From Candidatus Bathyarchaeota archaeon (lineage in GTDB: Archaea; Thermoproteota; Bathyarchaeia; Bathyarchaeales; Bathycorpusculaceae): 64,000 nucleotides of DNA. Of the stretch, positions 21,495 to 41,861 are shown one piece after another; within the stretch, counting starts at the first letter, position 1, and the number at the start of each line of letters is the position of its first letter. The stretch covers positions 106,315 through 170,314 of the forward strand of contig CAVYXJ010000013.1 in the NCBI GenBank assembly GCA_963772455.1, written 5' to 3'. The notes beneath the pieces are model-generated. The model worked only from the letters and a program-made list of their open reading frames with translations. It did no database searches and had not been told where the DNA came from. The position numbers and the translations under genes were made by a program.

Positions 21495-21523
21495 AGGCTA
21501 CTAAAGAATTAGCCTTTTCTTTT
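21495..21523 (+). terminator. Hairpin plus T-tract after fwdC
   Basis: AGGCTA-N9-TAGCCT followed by TTTCTTTT. Confidence 0.5.
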
Positions 21524-21631
21524 ATTTTACTTCATTTTCAAAGCCCAATTATCCCGATGAATTGATCAGTCAAGTGCTAACTTAGCCGAATGCCTTATGA
21601 AGTCGGCTAGATTCAAAACTCACTAAGCAGA

Positions 21632-23704: not shown

Positions 23705-24793
23705 GAAACCTTGGGTGGATACCTGTGAACGTGACCGTCTTTTCCCATAACCCACGATTCACACCATGCCTTATCAGCGAATGCACGTTCAGCCAGAAGC
23801 AGACAACGGTTGCTTTCGAAAATTTTTGACTCGACACGGTAGTTATTTGCAGCTCGTAGATAAGCTTCTTTTCCTGCAAAATCTAACGTCGCAGCCAGTT
23901 CCGATTCCGTTTGTTTTTGTGATAGAGTAAACAAAGCTTCTCCTTGGTTTTCTTCAGCTACCCCGCTCCAAAAAAACGAATCACAAGCTTCCAAGTCGCT
24001 GGCACATTTAGCAAAGGTTTTTTGCGCTTCCAAAAGGTTGTTTTCTTGGAGCAATTTGGCTCCTTTTCTGAGAAGCTGCAAATCAGAAACCGAAAATACG
24101 CCCATGTTTAGGTGTACATTTTCTTTTACTGGTCCATATGAACGGCGGGTTTGCAGACGAGTTAGGTCTTCTTTTGAGTTTATGTTAATGAAGCTCTTTA
24201 GTTCCGGGTCGAGTGCTTTTATTTCGTTTACTGGAGAAATCAGCAAGGTTTTGCTGGCTCCTCGTGGAATATCATCTGAGCGAGGCCGTTTCAGTTGGCA
24301 TAGTGTATCCGTGATTTCTAAACTACTTTGGCGTTCCAAGAACCATTATAAGGGTTTCAAGTCTGCCGTTAGGCCACATTGGAACAACCACATCAGACTC
24401 TTCCGCTTCATTAAACATATATTCAGCAACTTTGGGCTGCAAAAAAGGCATATCGCAAGGCAAAGTTAAGCAATAATCCGCTTGAACAGCTCTTAAACCT
24501 GACATGATTGCCACGTTTGGGCCACTTATGTGGCTAATTTTTTCGTCAATAACAATCCTGACGTTTTTAATGGCATATTGTTCTAAAGTTTTAGTATATT
24601 TCGCTTTTCGTTCCTCATCGTTTACACACACAACGATTTCATCGACAATGTCCTTGACGTTTTCCATAGCGTGGATTAAAAGAGGTTTACCGTTGAGTTC
24701 AGCTAGGGCTTTATCTCGCCAGATTGCATCTATTGTTTGGAATCTGCGAGCTTTTCCCCCTGCCAAAATGAGTGCAGCCCGTTTAGCCATCAC
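23701..24793 (-). CDS. mobA: Molybdenum cofactor guanylyltransferase with C-terminal helical extension (frameshift near 24337)
   Basis: LILAGG..RRF..DKA, LPCDMP, then NINSKEDL in the second frame; one-base removal joins the two ORFs. Confidence 0.85.
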
Positions 24794-24799
24794 GTTTCC

Positions 24800-25372
24800 T
24801 CAGTTAACGGTTTTTGTGCTTGCTTTACCTAATTGTTCTTTTATAAGCGTGATTAGTTTTTGGCCCTCTTCAGGAATCTTGATTATCGGTATATTTCCAT
24901 AAGATGTATTGGTTGCGTTTGTGGCTGCAATACCTGTAATCGCAATGATTGGCTCAACTGTTCCCTGCAACGTTTCTTCGAGTCCTTCTCTGTTTTTCGC
25001 TGTAATAATTTTGGGCACATCAACTCTTTTAGCTATTAAGCTGTGGAAGCCTTCAATGAATACGATATCGAGTTTCTCTTGTTCCAAAAGAGCGATTATT
25101 TGGTTTAAATCGTTGAGTGCCATCTCGGTTTTTTTGATGATGTCTATTTCTTCAGGTGAAATGGCAACAATGACTTTGGAGCCTGCCTTTGCATAACGCC
25201 AAGTGTTGGTTCCTTCTTTATCCATCGTGAAGCCTTTGTGGTGGACATGCTTTATTGAGCCGATTTGGTAGCCTTCAGCTGACAGATGAGAAATAAGGTA
25301 CTCTAAAGTAACTGTTTTTCCTGAACCGCTAACGCCAACAGCGGCTATAACTAAAACCGTAAAGTCGCACAC
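24800..25372 (-). CDS. mobB: Molybdopterin-guanine dinucleotide biosynthesis protein B
   Basis: GVSGSGKT P-loop, IKHVHH, IEGF; exact start uncertain. Confidence 0.88.
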   Translation of the reverse strand: MCDFTVLVIAAVGVSGSGKTVTLEYLISHLSAEGYQIGSIKHVHHKGFTMDKEGTNTWRYAKAGSKVIVAISPEEIDIIKKTEMALNDLNQIIALLEQEKLDIVFIEGFHSLIAKRVDVPKIITAKNREGLEETLQGTVEPIIAITGIAATNATNTSYGNIPIIKIPEEGQKLITLIKEQLGKASTKTVN

Positions 25373-25521
25373 TCCGCATGGAATCAAGTTGCTTGGCTTT
25401 TTATAAATAATGCTCAAGCTGTTTGCTTTCTGCGGTAGTTTTCTTAAAGATAGCGCCAACCGCTGGTTGTCATTAAACCATATATGGCTGTTTTAAGATA
25501 AAAACAGTTCAGGTGTAGTTA

Positions 25522-26032
25522 GTGCCAAAGCTTGTAGCGGTTGTCGGTGGGAAGCATTCTGGAAAAACCACTGTGATTGAGCATTTGATAGTTGAGCTCA
25601 AGCGTCGTGGGTACCGAGTGGGAGCTGTTAAGGAGATGGTTCGGATTCCAACGTTGGATACGCCAGCAACCGAAACCGACAGGTACAGCATTGCAGGAGC
25701 AGAAACGATAGTTGCCGTTCCAAGAGACGAAACTGTGGTTTTCATCAAAAGAAGATTGAACATAGAAGAAATCGTGCCTTTCCTAGAAGGGTTAGATTAT
25801 GTTGTTTTAGAAGGCTTTGAGTCAGAAAAAATGCTTCCTAAAATAATCGCAGCAAAAACCGCTGATGAAGCAAAAAGCTATTATGATCCTCTCTACCATC
25901 GCCGTTTCAGGAATAATAACTGAATCAGACATCGAAACCAAAAAAGCGGCTGCCATAAAAGTTCCAATATTCAATTTGACTGAAACTGAAGCCTTGACTG
26001 ATTTGATTGAGAAAAAAGCTATTGAAATGTAG
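25522..26032 (+). CDS. mobB: Second MobB paralog (frameshift near 25892)
   Basis: GGKHSGKTT, DT.R..AGA, LEGF; one-base removal extends to ..IAVSGII..LIEKKAIEM*. Confidence 0.82.
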
Positions 26033-26033
26033 C

Positions 26034-26538
26034 TTAACGGACTTCGATTGCTACTACGCCTCTGACCCATCTTTGTGCAAATTGATCGCTGCCTATTATG
26101 AGTCGCAGTGGTCCTTCACCATCATCTTTTAGCGCTGTCAAGGGTGAGCCGTTTCTTTGGTAGGCTATGATAGTGTTTTGGTTCATTGCATCTTGGATAC
26201 TTATGGTCGTTCCGTAGCCGTCTGAAGCTTGAATGTATACGGAGGTGGCACTTGTCAAGGATGATGGCTTGGGCAAGTAATTCTGGAAGTTGAACGCCGG
26301 TGTAATTGTAAACACCGTTGTCTGATGGTCTGCTGCTAGACGACAATGTAACTTGTACAGTTGTTGATGGTTGTGTTTTGAGTTGGCTAAGTGTCAGTGT
26401 TGTTGGGTTGTTTACTTTTCCCTTAATCTGTAAGACATCAGTTTGCGTTGTTTCTGGACGCGTATAATAATATAGCGGCACTGCTGCGATAATCAAAAAA
26501 ATAAAGAAGACAAAAACAATTTTTGAGGCTTTCTTCAA
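26034..26538 (-). CDS. Membrane-anchored sulfite-oxidase-fold (Oxidored_molyb) single-domain protein (frameshift near 26265)
   Basis: N-terminal TM, LQIKGKV..P..L, YTGV.L.ELL, ASDGY, NG.PL..GPLRL..WVR.V..IEV; no Cys. Confidence 0.78.
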
Positions 26539-26549
26539 GCAAAAACGCC

Positions 26550-27476
26550 TTAGGTTACTGTAACTCCTGAAACCCACCTAACCCAATATTGACCCCACTT
26601 AAAATCTTCCGTTGGAACAACAAGGCGGTAAGGTTGACCGTTAACAGGTGTTAGGTAAGCGCCGTTTTCTTGGTATCCAATCAAGATACCAAGGTCTTTG
26701 GCTTGCTGGATCGTGTATTCTCGGCTGTAACCGTCAATTGCTAACACAGTGACTTTGCTGGCGCCTTCTGAGACACCGCTGGCTTGCAGAATACTCCAAA
26801 GACTCACACCAGTCCACTCAGAAGTTCTTTGGGGTTCTCCACCTGGAGCAAGCGCTGCCTGCACAGTTATGGGTTCATAATTTGCTAAGTTGTTGCCTGT
26901 TAATACAAGTGGGTTAGAGACTGCCCCTGTAAAGTTGATTGTCCACGGTTGCAAACGGATTTCACTTACGCTTTTAACATTAAAGTTTGATGCTAACCCT
27001 GGAGTTATTAGTTTTAGTGGTCCTTCAGAAATATCAGTTATCCAGTTTCCATTCTTGGCAAACGCCAAAATTATTTCTTCACCTGAATACTGTGTGCTGT
27101 TGTAGGCTTGATAGGTGTTTATTGTTTTGTTGAAGCCATCAGATGCAATTACGTTGATAAAGCCTGCATCCCATGAGGCACCGATGTGGTTGAGAAGCTG
27201 GAGCATTGTTACTCCGATGTAATTGGCTGTTTCGCCTTTAATTGTGCTTGTTACGTTTGTCAAGGGCATCTGGGTAAGGTCATCTATAGTCACGGTTTTT
27301 TCTGATGCAATGTCACCTGTGATTTTGAGTTGAACCTGCGGTGGATTACCACTAGGTAAACCTAAATTGCTTTTTTGAGCTGGACCGCCTGTTAAATAAT
27401 AAATGGATGCTGTTAATGCAATAATAACTACAGCTAATGTTGAAACCGCTAAAACGATTTTTCTGGTTTTATTCAA
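26550..27476 (-). CDS. Membrane-anchored protein with two tandem Oxidored_molyb-like domains
   Basis: N-terminal TM; two repeats of ITG..L..(Y/W)xGV..A.DG(F/Y)..NG..(G/Q)P..L..P; no Cys. Confidence 0.82.
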   Translation of the reverse strand: MNKTRKIVLAVSTLAVVIIALTASIYYLTGGPAQKSNLGLPSGNPPQVQLKITGDIASEKTVTIDDLTQMPLTNVTSTIKGETANYIGVTMLQLLNHIGASWDAGFINVIASDGFNKTINTYQAYNSTQYSGEEIILAFAKNGNWITDISEGPLKLITPGLASNFNVKSVSEIRLQPWTINFTGAVSNPLVLTGNNLANYEPITVQAALAPGGEPQRTSEWTGVSLWSILQASGVSEGASKVTVLAIDGYSREYTIQQAKDLGILIGYQENGAYLTPVNGQPYRLVVPTEDFKWGQYWVRWVSGVTVT

Positions 27477-28044
27477 TTTTTTTTCCTCCGAAACCGATTT
27501 TTCCTACTCTAAATAGAAGCATGTTAGCGATGAATCCTCCAATGCAACCGCTTATTGCTGCAACAACACTCAAAAATGAGAGCACCCCCAAAGGCAAAAA
27601 CAGAACTAATGCTCCCACTGAAATGGTTCCGACAACATTAGCTATTGCTGCGGCACCGATGCAACAGGCTGAACAGCAGGCTTTATGCTTTGAAATCAAA
27701 AAGAAAGCGTCGATTGCTAAGCCAGGGGCAAGATAGATGACAAATGAGAGGAGACCGAAGTTGCCGAATGGAAGCAGCAGACTAATGAAGGCTTGTGTTA
27801 AGGAGACCATTGAGGCAGCCCCGATTTTACGTACAAGACCAAACGCCATTACTGGCCACATCATGTATAATCCTCCGGCTACAGCACCAGTTGGGACGTA
27901 CAGTGGTCCTGTTATAGCGGCGACGAGTGGGTGGATAACATTTTTTGTTGCTAAGCCAAGGCTTGCGAAGAGTGCCATTAGGACTAAGTCTGTGGTAGCG
28001 ATTTTTAGGGTGCCTTTTGCCAAGTTTTGGTGTGGTTGATTCAT
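27469..28044 (-). CDS. ECF-transporter S component
   Basis: About 190 aa, 5-6 TM, TTDLVLMALFASL, VRKIGAA, PGLAID; CCSACC loop. Confidence 0.8.
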   Translation of the reverse strand: MNQPHQNLAKGTLKIATTDLVLMALFASLGLATKNVIHPLVAAITGPLYVPTGAVAGGLYMMWPVMAFGLVRKIGAASMVSLTQAFISLLLPFGNFGLLSFVIYLAPGLAIDAFFLISKHKACCSACCIGAAAIANVVGTISVGALVLFLPLGVLSFLSVVAAISGCIGGFIANMLLFRVGKIGFGGKKIE

Positions 28045-28053
28045 GCAAAACTC

Positions 28054-28077
28054 CGATGTTATCACTTTGTAACATCG
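28054..28077. promoter_or_regulatory. Palindromic operator candidate CGATGTTA-N8-TAACATCG
   Basis: Perfect 8-bp inverted repeat between a minus-strand TATA-like element (about 28079-28087) and ATG 28044. Confidence 0.6.
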
Positions 28078-28118
28078 ATAAAATAAACCTATCGTTAAAA
28101 AAAACAAACAAAACCAAA

Positions 28119-28448
28119 TTATGAAAGTTCCATTACAACGCCATCAAGTTTTAACTGAGCGTTCCGGTATCTTTTCACCAAATCTTTGCCAAAATCCGTA
28201 ACCTCCGAAGAACCACCACCCTTTGCCCCACCGCGAACCCGAGTAACCAAAGACTCACCTAACCTCTCCTCAGCCAAAGTTAGTCTATGCAAAGCATACC
28301 GATAAGACATCTTCAACTCATTAGCAGCCTCTAAAACAGAATGCCGTTTATCAATTTCTTCGAGCAATTCAGCTAAACCATTTCCAAAAACTGCTTCGCC
28401 TTTATCGTTAACCATCCAAAGCTTAATCGCAAAACCTAAAGCGCACAA
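28119..28448 (-). CDS. modE: ModE-family winged-helix regulator (N-terminal domain only)
   Basis: FGNG..ELLEEI..HSV..AA..L.MSYR.A..RGGAKGGGSS.VT. Confidence 0.85.
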   Translation of the reverse strand: MCALGFAIKLWMVNDKGEAVFGNGLAELLEEIDKRHSVLEAANELKMSYRYALHRLTLAEERLGESLVTRVRGGAKGGGSSEVTDFGKDLVKRYRNAQLKLDGVVMELS

Positions 28449-28658
28449 TTGTTGCTCACCGCTTGTAGTTAGGGGAGTTGAAGGGAATTAAGCTTAATGC
28501 CTGTTTTGTGAGATTGATGGTTTCTATTATCTATTTTTTATTGCAGGTTGTTGGAGCGTTGTGTTTAGTAAATCATAACGCTTTTATAAATGTGATATAT
28601 ACAATATATACTGTATATTTTTAACATATTTTGTACAGGTTAAGTGGAGAAGCGGAAA

Positions 28659-29546
28659 ATGGAAAGCAACAAACAAAACCAAGAAAATGCAAATACCTAC
28701 AAAATCCTCCAAAAACAGCAACTAAACCCACAAGTAAAACTTTTAAAAATCCATGCGCCAAACATAGCCCAAAAAGCCCAACCCGGACAATTCGTTATCC
28801 TGAAAGCACACCAAAACAGCGAACGTATTCCCCTAACCTTAGCCTGCTGGGATAAACACGCCGGCACAATTACCCTCATTTTCCAAGAAGTGGGATACTC
28901 AACAATCGAACTGGGCAAACTCGAAATTGGCAACAGAATAGAAAACCTCGCCGGTCCCCTGGGAAAACCCAGTGACATCCAAAGATACGGCAAAGTCGCA
29001 GTTGTATGCGGAGGAGTCGGAACTGCCGTTGCGTATCCAATCGCTAAAGCCCTCAAAGAGGCCAAAAACTGCGTTGTAACCATCATGGGCGCAAGAAACC
29101 AAGACCTCTTCATATTAACTCCCGAAATGATATCCGTGTCAAATGAATTCTACTTCACCACCGACGACGGCGCAAAAGGAACAAAAGGCTTCGTCACAGA
29201 CGTTCTCAAAACCCTGCTCGGAGAAGGCTACAAATTTGACGTTGTCTTCGCGGTCGGTCCTCCAATAATGATGAGTGCAGTCGCCGAAGTCACACGACCT
29301 TTTGGCATAAAAACAATCGTAAGTTTAAACCCCATTATGGTTGACGGCATGGGCATGTGCGGAGCTTGCCGAGTATCAGTCGGCGAAACGATCCAATTTG
29401 CATGTGTAGATGGTCCAGAATTCGACGCCCACAAAGTTAATTTCAGAGAACTCGTTCAGCGGCTCAAGAGTTACTCAACAGAAGAAAAAGTCACCACTCA
29501 ATGTAACGTTTTGGAAGGAGGCAATTGTAAATGTCACAACCAATGA
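28659..29546 (+). CDS. nfnA: NADH-dependent ferredoxin:NADP+ oxidoreductase small subunit (NfnA/SudB)
   Basis: PGQFVIL..ERIPLT, GGVG, MVDGMGMCGACRV..CVDGPEF. Confidence 0.9.
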   Translation: MESNKQNQENANTYKILQKQQLNPQVKLLKIHAPNIAQKAQPGQFVILKAHQNSERIPLTLACWDKHAGTITLIFQEVGYSTIELGKLEIGNRIENLAGPLGKPSDIQRYGKVAVVCGGVGTAVAYPIAKALKEAKNCVVTIMGARNQDLFILTPEMISVSNEFYFTTDDGAKGTKGFVTDVLKTLLGEGYKFDVVFAVGPPIMMSAVAEVTRPFGIKTIVSLNPIMVDGMGMCGACRVSVGETIQFACVDGPEFDAHKVNFRELVQRLKSYSTEEKVTTQCNVLEGGNCKCHNQ

Positions 29547-30991
29547 ACACCTCTAGAAATCGTTGGCAAGCTGTTGATGCAGCAAAACAAGACCCCAGGG
29601 CACGGGCGAAAAATTTTGGAGAAGTCCTACTGGGGTATTCCGAGAAACAAGCCTTGGTTGAAGCTTCGCGGTGTTTAACATGCTCCACAGCCCAATGCGT
29701 TTTGGGTTGTCCAGTTGGCGTTGACATTCCCGCCTTTATTAAATCCATAAAAGAAAGAAAATACAGCGAAGCCATTGCGAAAATAAGAGAAAAAAACAGT
29801 TTACCCGCAATTTGCGGTAGAGTTTGCCCGCAAGAAGAACAATGCCAAAAAAACTGCATTATGGGCAGAAAAGGCGACTCCGTTTCGATTGGTCGACTTG
29901 AACGATTTGCTGCAGATTTAGAGCTGGAAAAAGGCCAACGGTCCCATGGTAAAGTGCCTTTGAACGGCAAAAAAGTAGCAGTAGTCGGGGCAGGTCCTGC
30001 TGGCTTAACTGTTGCGGCGAATTTAGCTAAACTTGGGTATAAAGTTGTGATTTACGAAGCACTGCATGTTGCGGGCGGCGTTTTGGTCTATGGTATCCCA
30101 GAGTTTCGGTTGCCTAAACACGTTGTTCAAGCAGAAGTGAACTACGTTAGGAGTTTAGGCGTTGAATTGCAGACTGACGCGTTAATCGGCAGATTATTCA
30201 CCGTGAAGGAACTGCTGGCAAACGGGTTCGAAGCGGTTTTCATAGGCACAGGCGCAGGTCTACCAAAATTCATGGGAATACCCGGAGAAAACCTCTGCGG
30301 AATCTACTCCGCCAACGAATTCTTAATCCGCGTTAACCTAATGAAATCCTACCAGTTCCCAGAATATAAAACACCAATCCACATAGGTAAAAAAGTAGCA
30401 GTCATCGGTGGTGGGAACGTCGCTTTAGATTCAGCCCGTTGCGCGTTGCGATTGGGCGCTGAAAGAGTCGTCATTGTTTATAGACGGTCAAGGGACGAAA
30501 TGCCAGCACGTGAAGAGGAAATCAGCAACGCTGAAGAAGAAGGTATAATCTTCAAGTATCTTGCTTGCCCCACCCAGTTCATTGCAGACGACAAAGGCCA
30601 AATTAAAGGCATGGAATACGTCACTATGAAACTCAGTGAACCCGACGCGTCAGGCAGAAGTAAACCCCTACCCATCAAAGGCTCTGAAGCAATTTTGGAC
30701 GTTGACACTGTAATCGTCGCAATAGGACGTACCCCAAACCCCATAATCCAATCCACAACCGAAGGCCTAAAAACCCTAATTGGCGGCATCATAGAAATCA
30801 ACCGAAAAACTGGGCAAACTAGCCTTGAAGCAGTCTACGCAGGCGGCGACATAGCCACGGGAGAAGCAACCGTTATCAGCGCGATGGGTTCAGGAACAAT
30901 AGCAGCCAAAAGCATCGACGACCACTTAAAGAATAAACCTCAAAAAGAAAGAGAAATAGAACGCGAAATGCCTAAAAGCAAAGTGATTTGA
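29531..30991 (+). CDS. nfnB: NfnB/SudA large subunit (GltD-like)
   Basis: RCLTC..CVLGCPV, CGRVCPQEEQC, GAGPAG, GGGNVA, AGGDI.TG.ATV. Confidence 0.9.
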   Translation: MSQPMNTSRNRWQAVDAAKQDPRARAKNFGEVLLGYSEKQALVEASRCLTCSTAQCVLGCPVGVDIPAFIKSIKERKYSEAIAKIREKNSLPAICGRVCPQEEQCQKNCIMGRKGDSVSIGRLERFAADLELEKGQRSHGKVPLNGKKVAVVGAGPAGLTVAANLAKLGYKVVIYEALHVAGGVLVYGIPEFRLPKHVVQAEVNYVRSLGVELQTDALIGRLFTVKELLANGFEAVFIGTGAGLPKFMGIPGENLCGIYSANEFLIRVNLMKSYQFPEYKTPIHIGKKVAVIGGGNVALDSARCALRLGAERVVIVYRRSRDEMPAREEEISNAEEEGIIFKYLACPTQFIADDKGQIKGMEYVTMKLSEPDASGRSKPLPIKGSEAILDVDTVIVAIGRTPNPIIQSTTEGLKTLIGGIIEINRKTGQTSLEAVYAGGDIATGEATVISAMGSGTIAAKSIDDHLKNKPQKEREIEREMPKSKVI

Positions 30992-30995
30992 AGTT

Positions 30996-32054
30996 TTATT
31001 TTTCTTTTTTTGTTTCTTCATGCTCAATGCCCGATTCAGGGTTGGGCGTTTTAAAGGCGCGGTTCACTGTCATTTCAGCCATGCTAAATGCGCAATGACA
31101 GATTCTTTTTATGTCATCACGGGTTGAGCATATGCCGCACACTAAGTCAGAGCTTTTTGGGGGACCAGTGAAGGATTTTGTGGCTATTTCTACTTCGGCT
31201 TTGTCCATTTTTTGGCGGTACTTCATTATTTCAACTGCGGCGTCTATGTCTTTGGCGAAGAAGGCGGCGATTCCTTTATTGAAAAGATCCAGGACTTCTC
31301 TTCCTGTAGTAATCATAATCGCCAACACATTGTCGGGAATCTTTTGTTTTGCGCCGTTTAGCATAATGATGTGGCGGGAGATGTCGGCTGCATAGTCAGC
31401 TGCATATTCCATCCGGTAAACTAGAATTTGATGATCCATACAATCGAGCGGATCAACATGTAACTCTTTGGCCAGAGTCGGATTTTGGGCTGCGTCGCGC
31501 AGGATTCGCAGGATGAAGAATGCAAAATGATCCACGTCTTCGTCGAGAGTCATGACCGACTTAGCCAGTTCTATATCTCCGGTTTGCAACGCGTTAATAG
31601 CGCTTTCAACCATCGACGAGGCGATGAGGTGCATACGTTGTACGGCCTGCTCTAGGGAAGCCTTCGACTCGTCCATGAGGCTTTGGATGTAAACGCATTT
31701 TGAATCTGCTTCCATGACTCTCATGTAGAGCCTTCCAGCCATATGCCGAATTGCTTTCGTTTGATTTACTGTAAAAATTTTTCCTGAGGTAAGTATTATG
31801 CCTGAGTAGCCATTGAGGAAGGCACCCAAGATTTTCTGTTTTATGAGAAGGTCTTCTTCGTTTTGTCCTATGCTCAAAGTTATTTCTTTGGGCTCGGCTT
31901 TTTTGAAGGCTCCGGGGTAAATCACGAGTGAGCGGTCCCGTTGAATGGTGAATGAGACGGAGTCGCCTTTTTCCAAGTCGTTTAATTGCATCCATTCTGG
32001 GGGAAGAGAAATAACTGAAGAGGATTTCCCTAAGGACATGATTTTTCGTTCCAT
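30996..32054 (-). CDS. AbrB-PhoU family regulator
   Basis: N-terminal RKIMSLGKSS.VISLP.EW AbrB domain followed by PhoU repeats (DEDVD, E..AD). Confidence 0.85.
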   Translation of the reverse strand: MERKIMSLGKSSSVISLPPEWMQLNDLEKGDSVSFTIQRDRSLVIYPGAFKKAEPKEITLSIGQNEEDLLIKQKILGAFLNGYSGIILTSGKIFTVNQTKAIRHMAGRLYMRVMEADSKCVYIQSLMDESKASLEQAVQRMHLIASSMVESAINALQTGDIELAKSVMTLDEDVDHFAFFILRILRDAAQNPTLAKELHVDPLDCMDHQILVYRMEYAADYAADISRHIIMLNGAKQKIPDNVLAIMITTGREVLDLFNKGIAAFFAKDIDAAVEIMKYRQKMDKAEVEIATKSFTGPPKSSDLVCGICSTRDDIKRICHCAFSMAEMTVNRAFKTPNPESGIEHEETKKEK

Positions 32055-32208
32055 ATGTTTTCCCTGCTTGGCAGTATTAACAGTACATACTCTATTTACT
32101 AAATATATATTATACTTGTGAAACCTGTTTGTCAAAGGTATCTTTAACAACTGTTTTTCAGCAAATCAATTGCAAGAAAATGCCAGTACCGACTTTCCTC
32201 TTAAGGAT

Positions 32209-33228
32209 TTATACCTCGATAACCTTCGCGTTACTAAGCACGTTAACGTTACCATTGCCCTTTGTGATGTAGCCAACTTCGAAATGCCTGACTTTCCGCT
32301 TGTCCAATTCGCTCAATAAATCATCGGCGTCCTCTTTGGCTATGGCTATTAGCATTCCACCTGCCGTTTCCTTAGCTTCACCTTGCAACAAGGGGTAACC
32401 AAAAATTTCAGTTAAAACGGGCGTGCCACGAATTACCGCCAACTGGTCAATAACGACGTCCACTTTCCCAAGTCCTGCCATATTGGCAGCGTGCCCTTTC
32501 AACCCAAAACCAGTCACGTCTGTCGCGGCGTGAACGGGAACTTTCTGCATAGCTTCAGCGACCGGTTTGTTTGAGGTAATCATTACTTCAATAGCTTCAG
32601 CGACAGCCTCTTCAATTAACACTTCAGAAACTTCTTTTAGTACTTCTCTGCCCTCTTCTTCCTTACGCAAACGATAAGCAGCCATCGCAGGCGCAATCCC
32701 AAGAGGTTTAGTCAAAAACAAACGGTCACCAACCTGAGCCCCTTTTGTATAGACAATTTTCTCAATTTCGCTAACAGCAGTTGCCGCCCCTCCAATAATA
32801 GGCCAGGGATTCCTGATTGTATGTCCACCAACAACAGGTGCACCCATTTCGCGGCAGAAATCTCCAAACCCCTTTAGCATTCCTACTGCCAATTCGTCTG
32901 GCATGTTTTCGGGAAACGCCATAATAGACAGAACACTGACAATGTTTGTGACTGCCAAAGCGTAGATGTCACTTGTCACGTTGCTACCTGCGATTCTACC
33001 TTGGATTTCAGGTTCGTCAACCATGGGCGTGAAAAAATCAAGCGTATTTAGTACGGCAAGGTTGTCTGTGATTTTAACGACGCTGGAGTTTTCCCATGGA
33101 CCAGCCAATACATCTGAATTAAAACTCTCTGTTAAACCTGCGTTATCGAGCAATCCGCCGAGTTGATACTGTGGAAGTTTGCAACTGCAACCGTGAACTG
33201 GAACAACTTTTGTTAATCTGTAAGTCAA
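32209..33228 (-). CDS. selD: Selenophosphate synthetase (Cys form)
   Basis: HGCSCK, LDFFTPMVD.P..GRIA..N..SDIYA, GGHT, LTKPLG, TDVTGFGL.GH, ETAGGML. Confidence 0.92.
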   Translation of the reverse strand: MTYRLTKVVPVHGCSCKLPQYQLGGLLDNAGLTESFNSDVLAGPWENSSVVKITDNLAVLNTLDFFTPMVDEPEIQGRIAGSNVTSDIYALAVTNIVSVLSIMAFPENMPDELAVGMLKGFGDFCREMGAPVVGGHTIRNPWPIIGGAATAVSEIEKIVYTKGAQVGDRLFLTKPLGIAPAMAAYRLRKEEEGREVLKEVSEVLIEEAVAEAIEVMITSNKPVAEAMQKVPVHAATDVTGFGLKGHAANMAGLGKVDVVIDQLAVIRGTPVLTEIFGYPLLQGEAKETAGGMLIAIAKEDADDLLSELDKRKVRHFEVGYITKGNGNVNVLSNAKVIEV

Positions 33229-33327
33229 ATTTCATTTGCTCCAATTGTCGATATTATTCCAAATAGCACAGGGATTTATAGGTATAAAAATATTCAAACC
33301 AAAAAAAATGGAAAAGAAGAGTTTTGG

Positions 33328-34618
33328 TTACTTTCTTTTTTCTTGGATTATTTCAAGGAATGCTTCAATTCTGGTTTTTATCTGCTCGGAATCACCCATT
33401 GCATAGTCAGTTTCAATCTTTAGCATCGGCAAACTTATCGCCTTTAATGCACGGTCTACTTTGACGCCTTCAACGTTGTAGTCGTGGCAGTTCTGCAACG
33501 TGTAATAGATTACGCCTTCTGCTTTGAATTGCTTAGCCAGCTCTATTACACTTTTTATGCGTGCATCGTTGGGTGTGAAGCATGCACAGGGTATCTGGCT
33601 GTATTTTTCAACCATAGCCCAGAGCAAATCGTTTAAGCTGTCACCTTTCGGTTCAACCAAGTTAGTAAAGTAACGTGTGCCTACGCAACTCTCCTCAACA
33701 ATCACTGAAGCACCAGCCGCTTGAGCGATGCTGTGGACTTTCCAATTGGGAATCGCCATAGGGCAGCCAGAAATCATAACTCTTGGCGCATCTTTCGCTG
33801 TGACACCTATGCCTTTGTGTACCCGTTCGTCAAGTTCGTCGCAGAGTTCGTTGACTTTTGTGGTGAAGCGTTTTACGTCGTCGTTGAAGCTGATTTGGAA
33901 AATCAGTAACGCATCTAATCCGCTGATGGGCGATGGGTTGTTGGCGCGCAAGTCGGATAAACGTTTGAGGGCTTTTCGTTTGTTGTTGATTAATTCGATG
34001 GATTCTTTTAGTTTTTCGGCGGTTATTTTGTTGCCTGTAACTTCTTCAAGTTTGGTTTTGAATGCTTCAAGTTCTTTGTACCAGAATTCTTTGCCTTGTC
34101 GTGTATCTGGTTTATGAGGAACCTCTAAAACATAGGTTGGAATAAGTTCGTTTAGTAGTTCGTAAACTTTCTTTTTGCCATCGCAGGTTGTTTCTCCAAC
34201 CACAAGGTCGCTTGACTGAAAGTAGGGGCAAGTTTTGTTTAGTCTAAAGCCGTAGAACGATTTTATCAAGGGGCAGAGGTTTCTTGGCAAAATTGCTTCT
34301 GCGTCTGGAACTGAGAAGTCTGCTCCACCGCACAACCCAACCATGGTTGCGTCTGCCGCGTAAGCTAGTCTCTTCTGGCGCGTAAATGCAGAATGCACCA
34401 ATGACTTTTTTGCCTTTTGCTCTGAGGTCGTTGAGTTCTTTGATTCGTAACCCGTGGATTTCTGAGACGACAAAGTCGAAGTAACCCATTCCTTTAGGTC
34501 GGTTCTTCTGTGTTAGGTATAAGGCTCCGTAGTATTGTCCTAAGATGCCAAGGAGTTGGTTATGTTTTTCAATATCCATTCCGAGAGATTTCCACATTTC
34601 TACATATTTTTCTGCCAT
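33328..34618 (-). CDS. Double-cubane-cluster protein (DCCP) / 2-hydroxyacyl-CoA dehydratase family (frameshift near 34371)
   Basis: RPKGM.YFD.VVSEIHG.RI.EL, FCIYAPEE, LCGG, LCPLIKS, CPY, ETTCDGKKK, GCP, ESC.G, PCACF, IETDY. Confidence 0.85.
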
Positions 34619-34702
34619 AGCAATCACATGCCAATGATGAGCGTATTGAAAATTCTAATTATTAAAATTATTGATAAATATTATTAGAAATATTGATTGA
34701 GG

Positions 34703-34937
34703 CTAGCGTTTTTTAACTAAAACCTTAAACTCAGCGGCAGACTTCGAATGCTTCAACCACTTCATGACCATTATTCTTAACCCAACGCTGAATGTTATCA
34801 AACTCCAACTCACCCTCACCAACAACCTCCAACAACTGTCCAGCAACCATCGTCTCAAGCTTACGCTTCGTAAACACCACTGGCATGGGACACATTTTGC
34901 CCTTAACATCCAACTTTTCAATTTCCAAAAACGTCAC
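34703..34937 (-). CDS. tusA: TusA/SirA-family sulfur (selenium) carrier (frameshift near 34748)
   Basis: LDVKGKMCPMPV motif; one-base removal gives ..EASKSAAEFKVLVKKR*. Confidence 0.85.
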
Positions 34938-35287
34938 TAGAACACTATTACTTTGTCACTATTAACTGTCCATTCAACGAGTTCATGAACAGTCGCGATT
35001 TTTACCCCGTCGAAGAGGTCGGCTTGATTTAAGCCACGTGCTTCAACGCAGACCACGCAGGCTTTAACTTCGACACCGCCTTGAATGAGATTTTCAAGAT
35101 TTTGGCCGTAGTTGATTAAGCCTTGAGCGGGTTTTTGACCTTTTTTTGCGAGGTAGACACCGTTTTCGAACAGCCAGATTTTTACTTTGTGGCCTTCTAT
35201 GTCGCAGGTTGCGGCGAATCGTAGAGCTGACATTGCGCGTTCTTTTGCGTATGGGGCTTCGTTTATTATTATTGTGAAGGTGACCAT
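34937..35287 (-). CDS. DsrE/YchN-family sulfur relay protein
   Basis: NEAPY..E..ALRFA, GVYLAKKGQ, CVVC..ARG, DKVIVF. Confidence 0.87.
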   Translation of the reverse strand: MVTFTIIINEAPYAKERAMSALRFAATCDIEGHKVKIWLFENGVYLAKKGQKPAQGLINYGQNLENLIQGGVEVKACVVCVEARGLNQADLFDGVKIATVHELVEWTVNSDKVIVF

Positions 35288-35407
35288 ATCATCCAACCTT
35301 AATTTTCCTGATAGAGAATTATTAAAAAAACTAATATAAGCATTTTCTAAAACAAAAAGCAAATATCACAACAACCTCTAAGAAGCTTACACAGAGGCAC
35401 AAAATTC

Positions 35408-36342
35408 GTGGACACCATAAGGTTCGATTACCTCAACACCTTCCTCACAGTTGCCAGAACACGCAGCTTCTCAGTGGCAGCTAAAGAACTTAAAACCAGC
35501 CAAGGCACAGTAAGCCACCATGTAGCCGCATTAGAAGAGTATTTTGACGCTGAACTCTTCAAACGCACAGCAAATGGCGTAGAAGTTACCGAAGCCGGAG
35601 CCACCCTAAAAGAAACCGCGGAAAAAATACTTCAGCAAGCCCAAGATGCAAAAACCAAAATCTCCATGGCAAAACATAATTTGTCAGGTACTATAAGAAT
35701 TGCTGCAAGCACCATCCCAGAAGAACATATAATCCCAAGTTTAACCGCTGAATTCCAAAAAAAATATCCAGACGTAAAATTCAGGATAAAAGCAGAAGAT
35801 AGCCTAAACAGCCTAAGAAGCCTACAAGCTAACGACGCTGATTTTGCGGCTGTGGGTACAATTTGGGGTTTTGAAGAAAAATTCAGTTATCTCCAGATTG
35901 GTGAAGAGCAATTGGTTCTCATTGTGCCTTGTAACCACCAGTTAGCCAAACATAAAATTGTCAATCTAAACACGATCTTAACTTTCCCATTCGTAAGTCG
36001 TGAAGAAACTTCTGGAACAAGACTGGAAATCGAGCAGTTTACTGGAACAAAACAATCTCCATTCCCAGCAGTTGCGGGTGACGTTGGAGCTTGGAAGCAC
36101 AGAATCAGTAATAACAGCTGTTTCAGAAGGCAGAGGCATAAGCATAATCTCCTCAATCGCCGCAACAAAAGCCCAAGCAGCAGGTTTGGCTGAAAATAGT
36201 TGCAATTGAAGAAGCAAAAAACTGTCGAAAACTCTACATCGTCAGACCAAAAAAGTCTCTTCTAAAGACATCTGAGGCTTTCTGGGAATTCTGCAAAAAA
36301 TACAAATTCAAAAACGAAGCAATTACCTGCTCTTCAACTTAA
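35408..36342 (+). CDS. LysR-family regulator resembling the selenium-metabolism-associated type (frameshifts near 36038 and 36189)
   Basis: SFS.AA.EL..SQ.TVS..LE HTH, IAASTIP, SREETSGTR, ELGSTESV..AV..G.GIS. Confidence 0.85.
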
Positions 36343-36349
36343 AACTATT

Positions 36350-36673
36350 TTACTCTTCGTCAAGTTTAACCCAGATTTTTCCCGATTCAACCTTCCACTT
36401 AAACATGACTAGCTTCATTGACGGTGCGTCTTCGTACTCTCCAGTTTCCAAGCTGAAGCGCCAATCATGGCAAGGACAAATAATTACCAATCCATCAAGA
36501 GATCCGCCTAAAAAGCCACATGCCATATGGGGACAACGGTTATCGATAACAAAAATTTTTCCTTGTTGCTTAATGAACAAAAGTGGTATACCCTCAAAAG
36601 GTACAAGCTTCATTTTACCTTCTTCCAATTCATTTTCATCTAAAACAGGTACAAATTCTTCTTGATTATCCAT
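36350..36673 (-). CDS. Rieske [2Fe-2S] ferredoxin
   Basis: CPH..CPCH.W.F.L.TG. Confidence 0.9.
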   Translation of the reverse strand: MDNQEEFVPVLDENELEEGKMKLVPFEGIPLLFIKQQGKIFVIDNRCPHMACGFLGGSLDGLVIICPCHDWRFSLETGEYEDAPSMKLVMFKWKVESGKIWVKLDEE

Positions 36674-36879
36674 TTCTATTTTCTCCTAAACGATGCCTAA
36701 TTTCCAATATGTATTTGGCGTTGGTATTATTTTAGGAGAACTGCTAAGTTACTGATAATTGGAAAGCAAGAATATAGCTCTCCAACAACCACAACAACCA
36801 AACAAAAATAGCTAAACTCAAAAACCAAAAAATATACATAAACAAACTTAATTGGTTGAACACTCTACATTTTAAAACA

Positions 36880-37721
36880 ATGTTCCAAATCAAATTAATG
36901 CGCCCTAAAGATTTCGTTTTTGCTGCAGAATTAGCGAATACTATGAATTGGAATATGGCAATCGAAGATTTTCAATTCTTGACTTATCTTGAACCAGGCG
37001 GCTGTTTTGTCCTTTTTGATGATTCGCAACCCATTGGCATTGCCACATGCAATAGTTATGGCAAAGTCGGTTGGTTTGGGAATCTCATAGTCAAAGAAGA
37101 ATATCGAAGCAAAGGCGCTGGAAGCCAACTTGTGAAACACGCAATCGACTATTTACATGGCAAAGGTGTTGAAACCATCGGATTATACGCTTACCCAAAC
37201 CTCGTTCAATTCTACAGTAACTTGGGCTTTCGATATGATGAAGATTTTTCTGTACTACATGCACCAGCTCTCAAAGTCAATGTCCGCTGAAGCTCTGTCC
37301 AGCGATAGGAGCTAAAAATATCCAGCAAATAGCGCGGTTTGACTGTAGATGCTTCGGTGGTGATAGAAGAAAACTTCTTGAATCAATCATCCTTGAACAA
37401 GGCAACTTGAGCTATTACGTTTCTAAGGATGCCGAGATAACTGGATACGTGGCCGCTACAGTTTACGGGACAATGGCTTGGGTTGGACCCTTGGTGTGCC
37501 AAGAAGGCAGCGTTGACGCCGTTATTACGCTGATTAAAGCGGTTCTAAGCAAGTTAACTGGTTTGAGTGTTTACGTAGCATTGCCTAAAAAAGAGATTAC
37601 TATCATATCCACTCTTTCTTTGGCAGGCTTTAAAGAAGATTTTTCTGTTGCAAGAATGTTTTTAGGACCAAGTATCGCAAAAAATTGTATATACTTGGCT
37701 GAATCTCTAGAACGAGGATAA
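36880..37721 (+). CDS. GNAT acetyltransferase with tandem GNAT-like domain (frameshift at about 37270-37300)
   Basis: V..EYRSKGAG acetyl-CoA motif, FYSNLGF; second frame FGGDRRKLL..WVGPL..GF. Confidence 0.82.
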
Positions 37722-37723: not shown

Positions 37724-39085
37724 ATGGAAGATTATTGCAGACTTTTACTTGAGGATTTTTTGAAAACTTCCTTTCCAACCGTCAAGGTTCTAGTTGATGG
37801 CGCCATTGCCTCAAAGGGACAGAATAGCAATCGGAAAGTTACTTTGTTTCGATATGTTAATGGAAAAAAAATTTCATTTACTTTCTCAGATAGCCGATTC
37901 TATTTACGAGGTTCAGTTGAATATACTAACCCGCAATTAACGGTGGAGGAAGTTCAAGGAATTATAGGAACACGACTGCTTGAAACCTGCGCTAATTACT
38001 TCTACGAACACGGTTTGCGTGAGCCAAATGACAGTGACATAGTTACTCTTTCAGAGTTGCTTAAGAAACCAACGCAAGGATTCATCGTACCTTTTCTACT
38101 AAACACTGATGATGTAGAAGCTGACCGATACTCGATGAATCCACTCAAACAATCAATCGTTGACAGCGGGCAGAGTGCTTTTCCAGCGGCAAATGTTAAA
38201 ACAAGCGAACTAAAAATTGACGAAGCTTACTGTAAAAAGTACGATGGAAGCTTAATTTCCCAAAAAGAAGCAGAGCTAATCAAAGAAAGCCTGACAGAAA
38301 GTAATGGTTCGTACCTTGACTTAGTAGATTCCGTCAAATATAGTCAACTGAAAGATTTGTCAGTATTCTTCGGAATGGATCTCTCACTTTTCACTTTGCG
38401 AATGCCGATATCACCTCTGAAAACAGAAACTAAAGATGGATTGTTACATTACATAATCAAAGAAAGCAATCACGACTACTCGTCTATAGAAGAGGCATAC
38501 ACGTGTATGGGTCGCAGTTTAAAAAACCGCACAACTCTTCTGACGATACCGCATTCTCCTAAAGGATTCGGTTCCAAACGTGCAGCTCGCGGAAAATTAC
38601 ACTTTGAAAACGGCAGATTACTTGATGCAACCATAAAATACAAAACTACTCAACTCTACCCAAACGCCATGGATCCTCAAGACATAGCAGTTGCAGTATG
38701 TGAAGACAGCTTCTCAGTACCCGGTGAAAAACTTTCAGATTACAGTTATTCTGAAACACCTTCTTCACCACAGTTCTTCTTGTATTCGATAGGTTCCCCC
38801 GAGGATGCAACATTATGGCATGGAATTGGTGCATTTGCTGCTCCTCAATTACTTCAGAGTTATCGCTCTGGACGAATAGCCTGCAGAGAAGGAAAATTAA
38901 TTAAAAATTTGACTGAAAAATACAATATCAAAATAGATGTTCCCCTACAATTTAACCTTGCACCCGAAGGCATATGGAGCCATCCAATACACCGCAACAT
39001 TGACGCAAGCATTGGCAGCGTACAAGACCTTCCAGATTTGGCGCATCGAGGAATGAGACTTGAATATCTTCCAACGTTTAAGTAG
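37724..39085 (+). CDS. Hypothetical protein (453 aa)
   Basis: Long ORF starting 2 nt after the GNAT stop; no family recognised. Confidence 0.75.
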   Translation: MEDYCRLLLEDFLKTSFPTVKVLVDGAIASKGQNSNRKVTLFRYVNGKKISFTFSDSRFYLRGSVEYTNPQLTVEEVQGIIGTRLLETCANYFYEHGLREPNDSDIVTLSELLKKPTQGFIVPFLLNTDDVEADRYSMNPLKQSIVDSGQSAFPAANVKTSELKIDEAYCKKYDGSLISQKEAELIKESLTESNGSYLDLVDSVKYSQLKDLSVFFGMDLSLFTLRMPISPLKTETKDGLLHYIIKESNHDYSSIEEAYTCMGRSLKNRTTLLTIPHSPKGFGSKRAARGKLHFENGRLLDATIKYKTTQLYPNAMDPQDIAVAVCEDSFSVPGEKLSDYSYSETPSSPQFFLYSIGSPEDATLWHGIGAFAAPQLLQSYRSGRIACREGKLIKNLTEKYNIKIDVPLQFNLAPEGIWSHPIHRNIDASIGSVQDLPDLAHRGMRLEYLPTFK

Positions 39086-39100: not shown

Positions 39101-39628
39101 TTGACAGCAATAGAATATGCTTTTTTTAAAATCTTGCGGTTGTTTAGAAAACTCCCTTTTAACATAATAAGTATAGGAAGCCGTAAAGTAATTTTTTCTG
39201 AGTACTTCAAAGATTTTGAAAATGTTGAGGCGGTAAAGGGCATTTTTGGAGATAAGACTCATGAAGTTTTAAGTCATCTTACAGTCGAGATTAGTTGGAT
39301 TATGGGTTACATGTTCGTAGATGGTTCAGACGGGCATTTGGTTATAAGCAAAGGTTATCTTAACGAGGGTGACAAAACCGACATTTACCTTGATTTAATT
39401 CATGAATTGTGCCATGTTAAACAGTTTATGGAAGGGCGTGAACTTTTCGACCCACGCTATGATTATGTGGAACGCCCAACGGAAATTGAAGCTTACCGCT
39501 ACTGTATTCAAGAAGCAAGAAGAATCGGACTTAGCGAAGAGAGAATTTGTTGCTATCTGAAGACTGAATGGATGAATGACCCCGATTTCAAACGGTTGGC
39601 AAAATCTGTAGGCGTCTCATGTTTTTAA
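39101..39628 (+). CDS. Zincin-like (HExxH) protein
   Basis: LIHELCHVKQ..PTEIEAY. Confidence 0.72.
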   Translation: MTAIEYAFFKILRLFRKLPFNIISIGSRKVIFSEYFKDFENVEAVKGIFGDKTHEVLSHLTVEISWIMGYMFVDGSDGHLVISKGYLNEGDKTDIYLDLIHELCHVKQFMEGRELFDPRYDYVERPTEIEAYRYCIQEARRIGLSEERICCYLKTEWMNDPDFKRLAKSVGVSCF

Positions 39629-41063: not shown

Positions 41064-41861
41064 TTGGCAGCTCATAAATCTAGGTTTAGCATGTTGCGAA
41101 GGAAAGCTCCCCAAATAATTGCTGCAACAATAATTGTCACGTTAGTCGTTTATCTTTTGTTTGAGTTTTTAGAAGATTATTCATTAAATGCTCCATTAAC
41201 AAGTGGTCCCTTGATTAGTGCAATAGTCGCTTTAACACATAACGTAAAAGATACAGTATTCGATTGGGGTTACAATTGGGGGTACTCAGGCATTTTCGGC
41301 TTGATGGTTCTTGAATCCAGTTCTCTGCCTATTCCCAGCGAGATTGTCCTTCCGTTTTCTGGTTACCTTGTTTCTATTGATCGCCTAAACTTTTGGGTAA
41401 CAGTTTTTGTTGCTACTGTTGCCGCAATAATTGGTTCATTGATTGACTATTACATAGGACTAAAGGGTGTTGAAGCCCTTGCTAAACGTCGGATTCTAGG
41501 CAGAGTTCTATTTTCCAAGCATCAACTTGTATTAGCATCTAGATGGTTCGATAAGTACGGAGCGATTATAATTTTTCTAGCACGGTTAATCCCTGGAATT
41601 AGAACTTTAATCTCATTTCCTGCAGGAGCAGCAAAGATGCCCTTGGCAAAGTTTTTGGTGTTTACGATGGCAGGGTGCCTTTTGTGGAACAGTGTTTTGA
41701 TTTACGTAGGTTATTATTTAGGCTCTAACTGGTCAGAAGTCGCCGGTTTTTCACACTTCATACTAATAGCTGTAATAGCTGCTTTGATAGCATTAATTGT
41801 TGCTTACTTCGTGATCCGAAGTAAAAGAAGAAAAGCTCGAGCCCAAACGCAAACCAGCTGA
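41064..41861 (+). CDS. DedA-family membrane protein
   Basis: LESSSLPIPSE, ARLIPGIRT.IS.PAG. Confidence 0.9.
   Translation: MAAHKSRFSMLRRKAPQIIAATIIVTLVVYLLFEFLEDYSLNAPLTSGPLISAIVALTHNVKDTVFDWGYNWGYSGIFGLMVLESSSLPIPSEIVLPFSGYLVSIDRLNFWVTVFVATVAAIIGSLIDYYIGLKGVEALAKRRILGRVLFSKHQLVLASRWFDKYGAIIIFLARLIPGIRTLISFPAGAAKMPLAKFLVFTMAGCLLWNSVLIYVGYYLGSNWSEVAGFSHFILIAVIAALIALIVAYFVIRSKRRKARAQTQTS

Follow-up and report, generated by a model that had tools for sequence, protein, structure and literature searches.

A putative selenium-handling operon of Bathyarchaeia in which selD adjoins a double-cubane cluster protein gene

Described selenium loci and the Bathyarchaeia operon

Selenium gene neighbourhoods in which a LysR-type regulator and small chalcogen carriers accompany the selenophosphate synthetase gene selD have been described from bacteria (Lin et al. 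2015, PMC5322559). Here, we analyze an archaeal neighbourhood of this kind, located in a 64,000-nucleotide stretch of contig CAVYXJ010000013.1 from Candidatus Bathyarchaeota archaeon (hereafter the window), where selD is the direct neighbour of a gene for a double-cubane cluster protein (DCCP). In the available part of the study by Lin et al., the regulator LysR_Se (HrsM in archaea) is reported to be confined to SelD-containing, mostly selenocysteine (Sec)-decoding organisms, YedE, YedF and DUF3343 are linked to SelD, and YedF is given as absent from archaea. In its STRING table for Slackia, the LysR-like gene has a 2-hydroxyglutaryl-CoA dehydratase subunit as its highest-ranked partner, and the partners of YedE/YedF include an activase. 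The Bathyarchaeia locus resembles these bacterial neighbourhoods in placing LysR_Se beside SelD, in its TusA/SirA-like and DsrE-like carriers and, in some relatives, in the presence of YedE and PF11823. It differs in its archaeal host, in a SelD of the archaeal/eukaryotic branch and in separate genes for TusA and DsrE; a DCCP-type gene is not discussed in that part of the study.

At the genome level, DCCPs have been associated with SelD by Haft and colleagues, who built the DCCP model NF040772 (bioRxiv 10.1101/2022.07.06.499078). According to the preprint, 955 of 970 DCCPs scoring above 400 bits lie in SelD-containing assemblies, and nine of the 15 DCCPs from SelD-less assemblies belong to methanogenic archaea. 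Its candidate explanations are selenium-compound substrates, selenium-dependent neighbouring steps and a selenium-bridged cluster. The DCCP-SelD link, a selenium-bridged cluster and DCCP action on selenium compounds are therefore reasonable ideas that are already contained in that preprint. Its question and its DCCP family are the same as ours, and the SAO locus that it considers also has a DsrE-like CxxC protein. However, the preprint rests on phylogenetic profiles and on adjacency to the bacterial SAO cassette, whereas here DCCP and selD are neighbours in an archaeal operon without SAO genes.

A selenium-responsive regulon is described for Methanococcus maripaludis, in which selenium depletion raises the TusAD transcripts by 4.5-4.6 log2 and YedE by 5.28 log2, and in which an intergenic region is bound by the LysR-type repressor HrsM (PMC11097638). 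Both systems have a LysR-type selenium regulator, for which an intergenic site is described in the methanogen and predicted here, and the selenium response of the methanogen includes TusAD and YedE. In contrast, the use of Sec is proven for Methanococcus, whose SelD itself contains Sec, and the available part of that account mentions no DCCP, whereas the regulator studied here adjoins carriers, DCCP and SelD.

The Bathyarchaeia locus is thus a selenium gene neighbourhood of a known kind, with LysR_Se, carriers and a DCCP-family gene. New are the archaeal host, the SelD of the archaeal/eukaryotic branch, the separate carrier genes and the direct DCCP/selD neighbourhood without a nearby activase. 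No description of this operon in Bathyarchaeia was found in the literature consulted, although the supplements of the 2022 preprint may list archaeal cases. Nor does the comparative literature consulted on selenium genes of archaea refer to a selenium metabolism of Bathyarchaeia. It is the tightest DCCP-SelD link that we found: two chalcogen carriers and a regulator of the selenium type share a small operon with the two adjacent genes. Dozens of species-level genomes retain this arrangement, and its origin is separate from that of a similar one in Deltaproteobacteria. The known distribution of selenium-handling gene sets (LysR_Se, carriers, split YedE, PF11823) would thereby come to include Bathyarchaeia, which are very abundant in anoxic soils and sediments, and the four small co-expressible genes of the locus make the statistical association of DCCP with SelD directly testable at the bench.

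Conservation and gene content of the operon

A scan of species-representative genomes with the C-terminal piece of the window DCCP as query returned 159 relatives in 184 matched stretches, the best 80 of which were analyzed. By similarity, 42 of these loci are Bathyarchaeia-type, including contigs titled uncultured archaeon, Thermoproteota, Methanocella sp. and Limnocylindrales, and 38 are other. The loci related to the window come from metagenome-assembled genomes, many of one assembly series. selD, tusA, dsrE and lysR occur in the layout of the window in 38 of the 42 Bathyarchaeia-type loci, and in 37 of the 38 whose flanks suffice (2 kb or more upstream and 1.2 kb or more downstream). The one exception with enough flank, L026, has DCCP alone; L010, L013 and L027 are truncated by contig ends. 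Directly after the DCCP gene stands selD in 40/42 loci, lysR is divergent from dsrE-tusA-DCCP-selD in 39/42, and a Rieske gene adjoins lysR in 32/42 (in L023 it follows selD immediately, in the same orientation). While the flanks vary between genomes, the core of six genes is constant. A soil/peat clade of Bathyarchaeia very probably carries a conserved selenium-handling operon. The initial annotation had proposed a real, co-oriented and selenium-related module and had named conservation of the DCCP-selD linkage as a check; both the module and the linkage are borne out by the layout, the family matches and the relatives.

The five genes first singled out, selD, DCCP, tusA and dsrE on the minus strand and a divergent lysR, were all recovered at the coordinates and in the orientations originally assigned to them (Table 1), and the Rieske ferredoxin gene is an added member of the conserved unit. 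The dsrE stop overlaps the start of tusA, and lysR starts 120 bases from the co-oriented minus-strand set (32209..35287). Median gaps in the relatives are 9 nucleotides for dsrE-tusA (n=22), 74.5 for tusA-DCCP and 78 for DCCP-selD.

Table 1. Features of the selenium-type operon in the window.
Feature	Position	Strand	Description
selD	32209..33228	-	339 aa, intact, Cys-type selenophosphate synthetase; AIRS and AIRS_C domains
DCCP (double-cubane cluster protein)	33328..34627	-	two frames, one extra base at ~34370
tusA-like carrier	34703..34937	-	CPxP Cys; extra base at ~34747 alters the last residues in this assembly
dsrE-like carrier	34937..35287	-	single domain, conserved CxxC
Conserved element of the lysR/dsrE divergent promoter region	35319..35339	-	TATA-like sequence and ATTA-N7-TAAT (T-N11-A), candidate LysR box
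lysR, LysR_Se/HrsM type	35408..36342	+	three frames, extra bases at ~36036 and ~36191; stop at 36340..36342
Rieske-type [2Fe-2S] ferredoxin	36350..36673	-	Pfam Rieske 65.5 bits; ends beside lysR

Some assemblies hold more than one locus. L002 and L010 are two diverged copies of the module in one assembly, with DCCPs 95% and 84% identical to that of the window, and L045 and L057 are two DCCP loci in one Jordarchaeia assembly. L014, titled Methanocella sp., and L052, titled Limnocylindrales bacterium, are typical Bathyarchaeia-type loci, which suggests mis-binning.

Four frameshifts interrupt the genes of the locus, all of them single-base insertions (one in DCCP, one near the end of tusA and two in lysR). 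In an alignment of the locus with seven close relatives, none of these insertions (~34370, an extra G in DCCP; ~34747, tusA end; ~36036 and ~36191, lysR) occurs in a relative, and a further private insertion lies at ~35315, upstream of dsrE. Private single-base insertions are also found outside the locus, at 24338, 25398, 25887, 26252, 26541 and 37303, where open reading frame (ORF) calls and family scans show truncated or split genes for MobA, MobB, a molybdopterin oxidoreductase and a GNAT protein. The closest relative, L003 (88.6% DNA identity), has every gene intact. Ratios of nonsynonymous to synonymous substitution (dN/dS) between the window and L003 equal 0.08 for selD, 0.065 and 0.115 for the DCCP pieces, 0.117 for dsrE and 0.118 for lysR, which points to purifying selection on all five segments compared. 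Since the insertions are private, the same defect appears elsewhere in the window, the relatives are intact and dN/dS is low, the frameshifts are sequencing errors of this assembly. That the locus is instead decaying in this organism, with real frameshifts in DCCP, tusA and lysR as the initial annotation had allowed, could be argued from the four frame-breaking changes within 2.3 kb. Yet this is hardly credible, given their absence from every close relative compared, the same changes outside the locus and the low dN/dS of the supposedly broken genes; in addition, the genes for PorA and a B12-radical-SAM protein are split, and similar breaks affect selD or DCCP in other assemblies of the clade (L002, L005, L037, L038 and L079). 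Beyond the module, split genes lie at 10653..11886, 23701..24793, 25522..25923, 26122..27476, 36856..37721 and 57571..58936 (PorA, MobA, MobB, molybdopterin oxidoreductase, GNAT and B12-radical-SAM), with a private single-base insertion as the cause in four. With such indel noise throughout the assembly, any apparent pseudogene here needs read-level proof.

The window SelD passes two SelD models, NF010705 (332 bits; cut-off, 291) and TIGR00476 (237.8 bits; cut-off, 125), and contains both PF00586 and PF02769, while its score against the Escherichia coli-type model NF002098 (161 bits) is below the cut-off of 299. It matches human SEPHS1 with 166.7 bits, the Leishmania enzyme with 140.9, the E. 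coli enzyme with 107.5 and that of Aquifex with 85.5. These scores place it, as far as sequence comparison goes, in the archaeal/eukaryotic branch, and selenophosphate synthesis is predicted. The motif HGCSCK, present in all 40 Bathyarchaeia-type relatives with a readable SelD N-terminus, aligns with KGTGCK of human SEPHS1 with the lysine retained, so that its first cysteine stands at the Sec/Cys position. C14, C16, K17, D64, D71, N83, D87 and D237 are invariant in 28 sequences, and we take the Asp and Asn residues among them to be metal/ATP ligands. The cysteines noted earlier in SelD (VHGCSCK at the N-terminus) and in FwdB (17421..18980, SVCHGPS) were verified.

The 120 best homologues of the window SelD are 85-100% identical, and the named ones are Candidatus Bathyarchaeia archaeon except for one Candidatus Acidoferrum sp. 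Among 1.84 billion cluster representatives, the SelD clade is isolated, the nearest full-length outsiders being 41-45% identical. Several of the next matches start just past the N-terminal loop, as mis-called Sec-type genes would. Of 240 longer SelD forms found, the 120 listed are all fusions with a NifS-type desulfurase, which fits a SelD that takes selenium from a persulfide-type partner. Such fusions resemble the present module in coupling SelD to a protein that holds sulfur or selenium on a cysteine, but they are covalent and involve a pyridoxal phosphate-dependent desulfurase, whereas the module has separate TusA and DsrE genes and a reductase.

The C-terminal DCCP piece of the window passes NF040772 (457.1 bits; cut-off, 350), and the intact DCCP of L003 (432 aa) matches the Carboxydothermus enzyme (PDB 7YYL/6ENO) over its full length with 509 bits. 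A seven-cysteine spacing of 18, 18, 29, 165, 34 and 30 is found in 36/36 Bathyarchaeia-type DCCP ORFs of at least 385 aa; ten other ORFs of the DCCP cluster, fragments of 76-365 aa, are without it. The Carboxydothermus hydrogenoformans system, a DCCP with its ATP-dependent reductase DCCP-R, is thus alike in full-length match, cysteine spacing and membership of NF040772. It differs in having that reductase: by tblastn, an activase of the BcrAD_BadFG type is encoded within 10 kb in 0/42 Bathyarchaeia-type loci and nowhere in the 64-kb window, in agreement with the earlier remark that none adjoins DCCP. In the other loci, an activase is found in 28/38 (Nitrososphaerota, 7/7; Asgard, 5/7; bacterial, 16/24), usually directly after the DCCP gene, and in Bathyarchaeia this position is taken by selD. 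The Nitrososphaerota activase has its next-best matches in two activases named Candidatus Bathyarchaeota archaeon (56-57% identity), so some Bathyarchaeota carry an activase gene elsewhere, and this suggests that the activase for the DCCP of this clade is likewise encoded elsewhere in the genome. In an activase tree, a sister relation of the Bathyarchaeota-named to the Nitrososphaerota activases came out without resolution.

A quick IQ-TREE phylogeny of DCCP (70 rows; support by Shimodaira-Hasegawa-like approximate likelihood ratio test) groups the Bathyarchaeia-type sequences in one clade (99), sister to Nitrososphaerota (99). Within it, L026, which has no selD, diverges first, and the 34 rows linked to selD group together (99). 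Such a topology agrees with descent within Thermoproteota and a single origin of the link to selD, not with a recent bacterial transfer. The initial suggestion of acquisition from anaerobic bacteria is likewise not supported by the SelD, which is nearer to SEPHS1 than to the E. coli and Aquifex enzymes, or by the existence of an archaeal LysR_Se, HrsM.

The TusA-like protein matches Pfam TusA with 59.9 bits (the L003 copy has 77 aa), and GKMCPmPV is kept in 34 TusA sequences; the DsrE-like protein matches Pfam DsrE with 79.6 bits, with EVKaCvVC..ARG kept in 38 sequences. The best NCBIfam names for TusA are YedF models, both below their cut-offs (39.9 versus 79 and 33.7 versus 110), the latter being the score against the two-domain YedF model TIGR03527, to which the DsrE gene has no match. 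TusA shows 34% identity to the YedF N-domain (E value, 2e-9), while DsrE compared with the YedF of a deltaproteobacterial locus, L053, gives a BLASTP E value of 9.8. A split YedF was rejected, as DsrE is unlike the YedF C-domain; the module would act as a split pair of carriers without being a YedF. CPH...CPCH is conserved in the Rieske protein.

For both pieces of the split window lysR, NF040786, the NCBIfam model for LysR regulators associated with selenium metabolism, is the best family (178.1 and 38.8 bits, each from part of the gene; cut-off, 250). In the 31 full-length regulators of the relatives, it is the sole family at an E value of at most 1e-55 (31/31, with 231-266 bits). The cut-off is reached by 20/31, including those of the five loci closest to the window (L001-L004 and L062), and 11/31 score 231-249. 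The block at 35319..35339 is the best-conserved part of 34 aligned intergenic regions and occurs once in the window, where none is expected by chance; it fits the T-N11-A form of a LysR box and is a candidate for one. An Rfam search over 31500..37200 gave, at an E value of at most 1, one chance-level match only, and the promoter/terminator scan was uninformative for an archaeon.

DCCP-associated selenium genes also occur in other arrangements. L023 and L028, both Bathyarchaeia-type, have additional operon genes upstream, namely a split YedE (TIGR04112), another TusA, a PF11823 selenium/sulfur carrier and a Carb_kinase-like gene. The deltaproteobacterial L053 combines YedE, PF11823, a Carb_kinase-like gene, a Sec-type SelD (GAGU), YedF, a YedE/FdhT-like gene, TusA and DCCP, and in L064, also deltaproteobacterial, a Sec-type SelD directly follows DCCP, its TGA aligned with cysteine in three homologues. 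The L053 SelD scores 373.5 bits with TIGR00476, 328.6 with NF002098 and 164.2 with NF010705, the model that the window SelD matches best. With this different SelD type, and with the DCCPs of L053 and L064 in a clade apart from the Bathyarchaeia-type, the juxtaposition of DCCP and SelD arose at least twice. Among the 38 non-Bathyarchaeia loci of the DCCP subfamily, SelD is found in two and YedF in three.

A possible selenium supply chain and the destination of selenophosphate

That the operon deals with selenium is made very probable by the SelD equivalogs that are passed, by NF040786 as the sole strong family of the regulators and by YedE and PF11823 in L023 and L028. Tentatively, and with the direction of selenium flow and the protein roles inferred, we favour a whole selenium supply chain in which DCCP acts upstream of SelD. 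Selenium would enter the cell, possibly by way of the split YedE that two relatives encode in the same operon, and would be held on the TusA (CPxP) and DsrE (CxxC) cysteines as perselenide or selenotrisulfide. Selenium, whether elemental or bound to the carriers, would then be reduced to selenide by DCCP, which would draw electrons from the Rieske ferredoxin and from an activase assumed to be encoded elsewhere, and SelD would convert the selenide with ATP to selenophosphate. LysR_Se may act at the conserved element between lysR and dsrE to switch the operon by selenium status. The reduction of elemental selenium to selenide is difficult, which would justify so strong a reductase.

Several observations weigh against this chain or against a selenocysteine end point for it. 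On chemical grounds, the release of selenide from perselenide should not require so strong a reductant. By tblastn, an activase is missing from the window and from the vicinity of DCCP in all 42 Bathyarchaeia-type loci, although solved DCCPs operate with such a partner. In three Nitrososphaerota loci (L034-L036), DsrE, DsrH, TusA, PF11823 and Carb_kinase-like genes accompany DCCP and its activase, whereas SelD is not encoded within 10 kb, so the link between DCCP and carriers is not specific to SelD. A fusion of DCCP (PF06050) with SelD was not found among the 120 listed of the 240 longer SelDs, which is weak evidence. Neither the window nor the scanned flanks of the 42 Bathyarchaeia-type loci revealed a Sec, SelU or YqeB/C gene. 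Finally, all 40 readable Bathyarchaeia-type SelDs are Cys-type, whereas a review (PMC9312934, in its available part) describes SelD as a selenoprotein in every Sec-using archaeon known to it.

The best surviving alternative, which we nevertheless consider unlikely, is a regulatory or indirect link: DCCP would reduce an unrelated small molecule in a pathway that needs a selenoenzyme, and would share the LysR_Se operon without touching selenium. The small number of non-Bathyarchaeia DCCP loci with a SelD or YedF gene agrees with this, most being without any selenium gene. However, the gene order is tight and conserved, with the carriers on one side of DCCP and selD on the other, and the grouping recurs independently with YedE, YedF and PF11823 in L053. 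In addition, the module contains no conserved candidate gene for a substrate pathway.

Less probable still is that DCCP consumes selenium, in that SelD-derived selenium delivered via TusA and DsrE replaces the bridging sulfide and yields a selenium-bridged double cubane. The position of selD directly after DCCP in 40/42 loci, which elsewhere is often held by the activase, the genome-wide co-occurrence of the two and the sister Nitrososphaerota DCCPs, whose sulfur carriers without SelD would fit carriers in cluster maturation, all speak for it, and the preprint authors list it as a formal possibility but rate other explanations more likely (10.1101/2022.07.06.499078). Against it, the DCCP is close to the solved enzyme with the cysteine spacing unchanged, nothing in the sequences compared distinguishes the SelD-linked clade, and the module is without a selenophosphate-using transferase. 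We are similarly doubtful of the wider proposition that DCCP belongs to the selenium enzymes and that the six genes constitute a self-sufficient trait, dependent on SelD but not serving selenocysteine, with DCCP either as the reductase that supplies SelD with selenide from elemental or organic selenium or as the recipient of SelD-derived selenium at the bridge of its cluster. To our knowledge, no physiological substrate or role of double-cubane cluster proteins has been known since their discovery; if this proposition were true, the physiological role of the DCCP family would be selenium chemistry.

A module handling sulfur, with a SelD homologue that makes a thiophosphate-type compound, had also been raised at first; TusA and DsrE are sulfur carriers by family and a sulfur role has been proposed for Crenarchaeota SelD-like proteins (PMC9312934), but this is very improbable, since the window SelD reaches 38.3 bits against a cut-off of 250 with NF038049 (SelD-related sulfur metabolism protein of hyperthermophiles) and passes two SelD equivalogs, while the regulator matches the selenium LysR model and two relatives have YedE in the operon. 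The SelD-like proteins of Sulfolobales and Thermoproteales are alike in being PurM-superfamily SelD relatives beside TusA/DsrE-type genes in a TACK archaeon, but the true SelD models separate the window SelD from them.

For the supply chain that we favour, the likeliest sink of the selenophosphate is selenocysteine synthesis, which would probably take place with genes outside the window. Within the window, ARAGORN and Rfam found no tRNA-Sec, and no PSTK, SelB, SepSecS, SelA, SelU, YqeB/YqeC or xanthine-dehydrogenase-type name was returned for 60 further ORFs and eight locus ORFs scanned by NCBIfam and 15 scanned by Pfam. A scan for in-frame TGA gave four candidates, none convincing. One of them, MobB-TGA-MobA (24323..25492, minus strand), with both parts in the same frame and a single TGA, was read as two genes and not as a selenoprotein. 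For the ORFs and scans covered, the initial statement that the window is without Sec machinery, SelU, a xanthine-dehydrogenase-type protein or a convincing in-frame UGA therefore holds. In the relatives, the flank scans span ~0.8 Mb, small parts of the genomes (ARAGORN for all loci; 55 recurrent clusters; 100 of 163 rare ORFs, 34 of which had no NCBIfam family and were also scanned by Pfam; and a TGA scan). Of 298 TGA candidates, the L064 SelD alone has a TGA aligned with cysteine after rejection of two, L034 10993..11718 and L036 11248..11865, which are artefacts antisense to the activase gene.

Nevertheless, a 64-kb window is too small to call SelD an orphan. Sec systems with a PSTK-aSelB fusion are reported from diverse Bathyarchaeota, and tRNA-Sec from a wetland-sediment lineage (PMC8762117, PMC9499178). 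This literature and the regulator family make a Sec system elsewhere in the genome the likelier case, the uniformly Cys-type SelD being one point against it.

It is improbable that the selenophosphate serves a molybdenum/tungsten (Mo/W) enzyme, as in the labile-selenium cofactor trait, rather than selenocysteine. The neighbourhood is suggestive: fwdDBAC, fdhD, moeA, mobA, two mobB, ModE-like and Oxidored_molyb genes lie at 17.0-28.4 kb of the window, and fwd, fdhD, moeA, mobA/B, modE and modABC genes surround the module here and in many relatives, standing on either side of it in different ones. A ModE-like gene is present within 10 kb in 29/42 Bathyarchaeia-type loci and immediately downstream of selD in nine, and selenium depletion raises a molybdate-binding protein by 5.79 log2 in M. 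maripaludis (PMC11097638). Yet YqeB, YqeC and xanthine-dehydrogenase-type names are absent from the NCBIfam scans of the window and of the scanned flanks, and FwdB has an ordinary cysteine. As the flanks vary around a constant six-gene core, the Mo/W neighbourhood may be inherited gene order.

Surroundings of the operon

The Mo/W block of the window (17014..28448; fwdDBAC, fdhD, moeA, mobA, two mobB, two Oxidored_molyb genes and a ModE-like regulator) is separated from selD by 3.8 kb. It abuts selD in L001 and L041, and in L047 Mo/W genes stand on the other side of the module. Between the block and selD, the window encodes an NfnAB/sulfide-dehydrogenase-like pair (28644..29546 and 29531..30991) and an AbrB-PhoU protein (30996..32150). 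This trio is found in 17-21 of the 42 Bathyarchaeia-type loci and is absent, for example, from L001.

The carrier genes of L034-L036 (~3500..6600 and 9500..12000) form a sulfur- or selenium-relay neighbourhood of DCCP in non-ammonia-oxidising Thaumarchaeota relatives. In L009, a short contig, selD is closely followed downstream by a VhuG-like hydrogenase small-subunit gene (5547..6533, minus strand); some hydrogenases of the Vhu type are selenoproteins in archaea that use Sec. The window also encodes, 5 kb from the module, a membrane protein of the DedA/UptA family (41064..41861, plus strand), and tblastn with this protein finds it in 2/42 Bathyarchaeia-type loci (L001 and L041); DedA proteins have been discussed for selenite uptake.

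An ESM Atlas search with a 453-aa neighbour of the module (37724..39085) gave no usable match. This protein and one of 175 aa (39101..39628), both encoded on the plus strand, are conserved, match no Pfam or NCBIfam family and stand beside the module in 11-12 relatives. The 175-aa protein has an HELCH motif that resembles the HExxH of zinc proteases. At 1855..1991 (plus strand), Rfam, but not ARAGORN, identifies a 137-base tRNA, which is probably an intron-containing archaeal tRNA.

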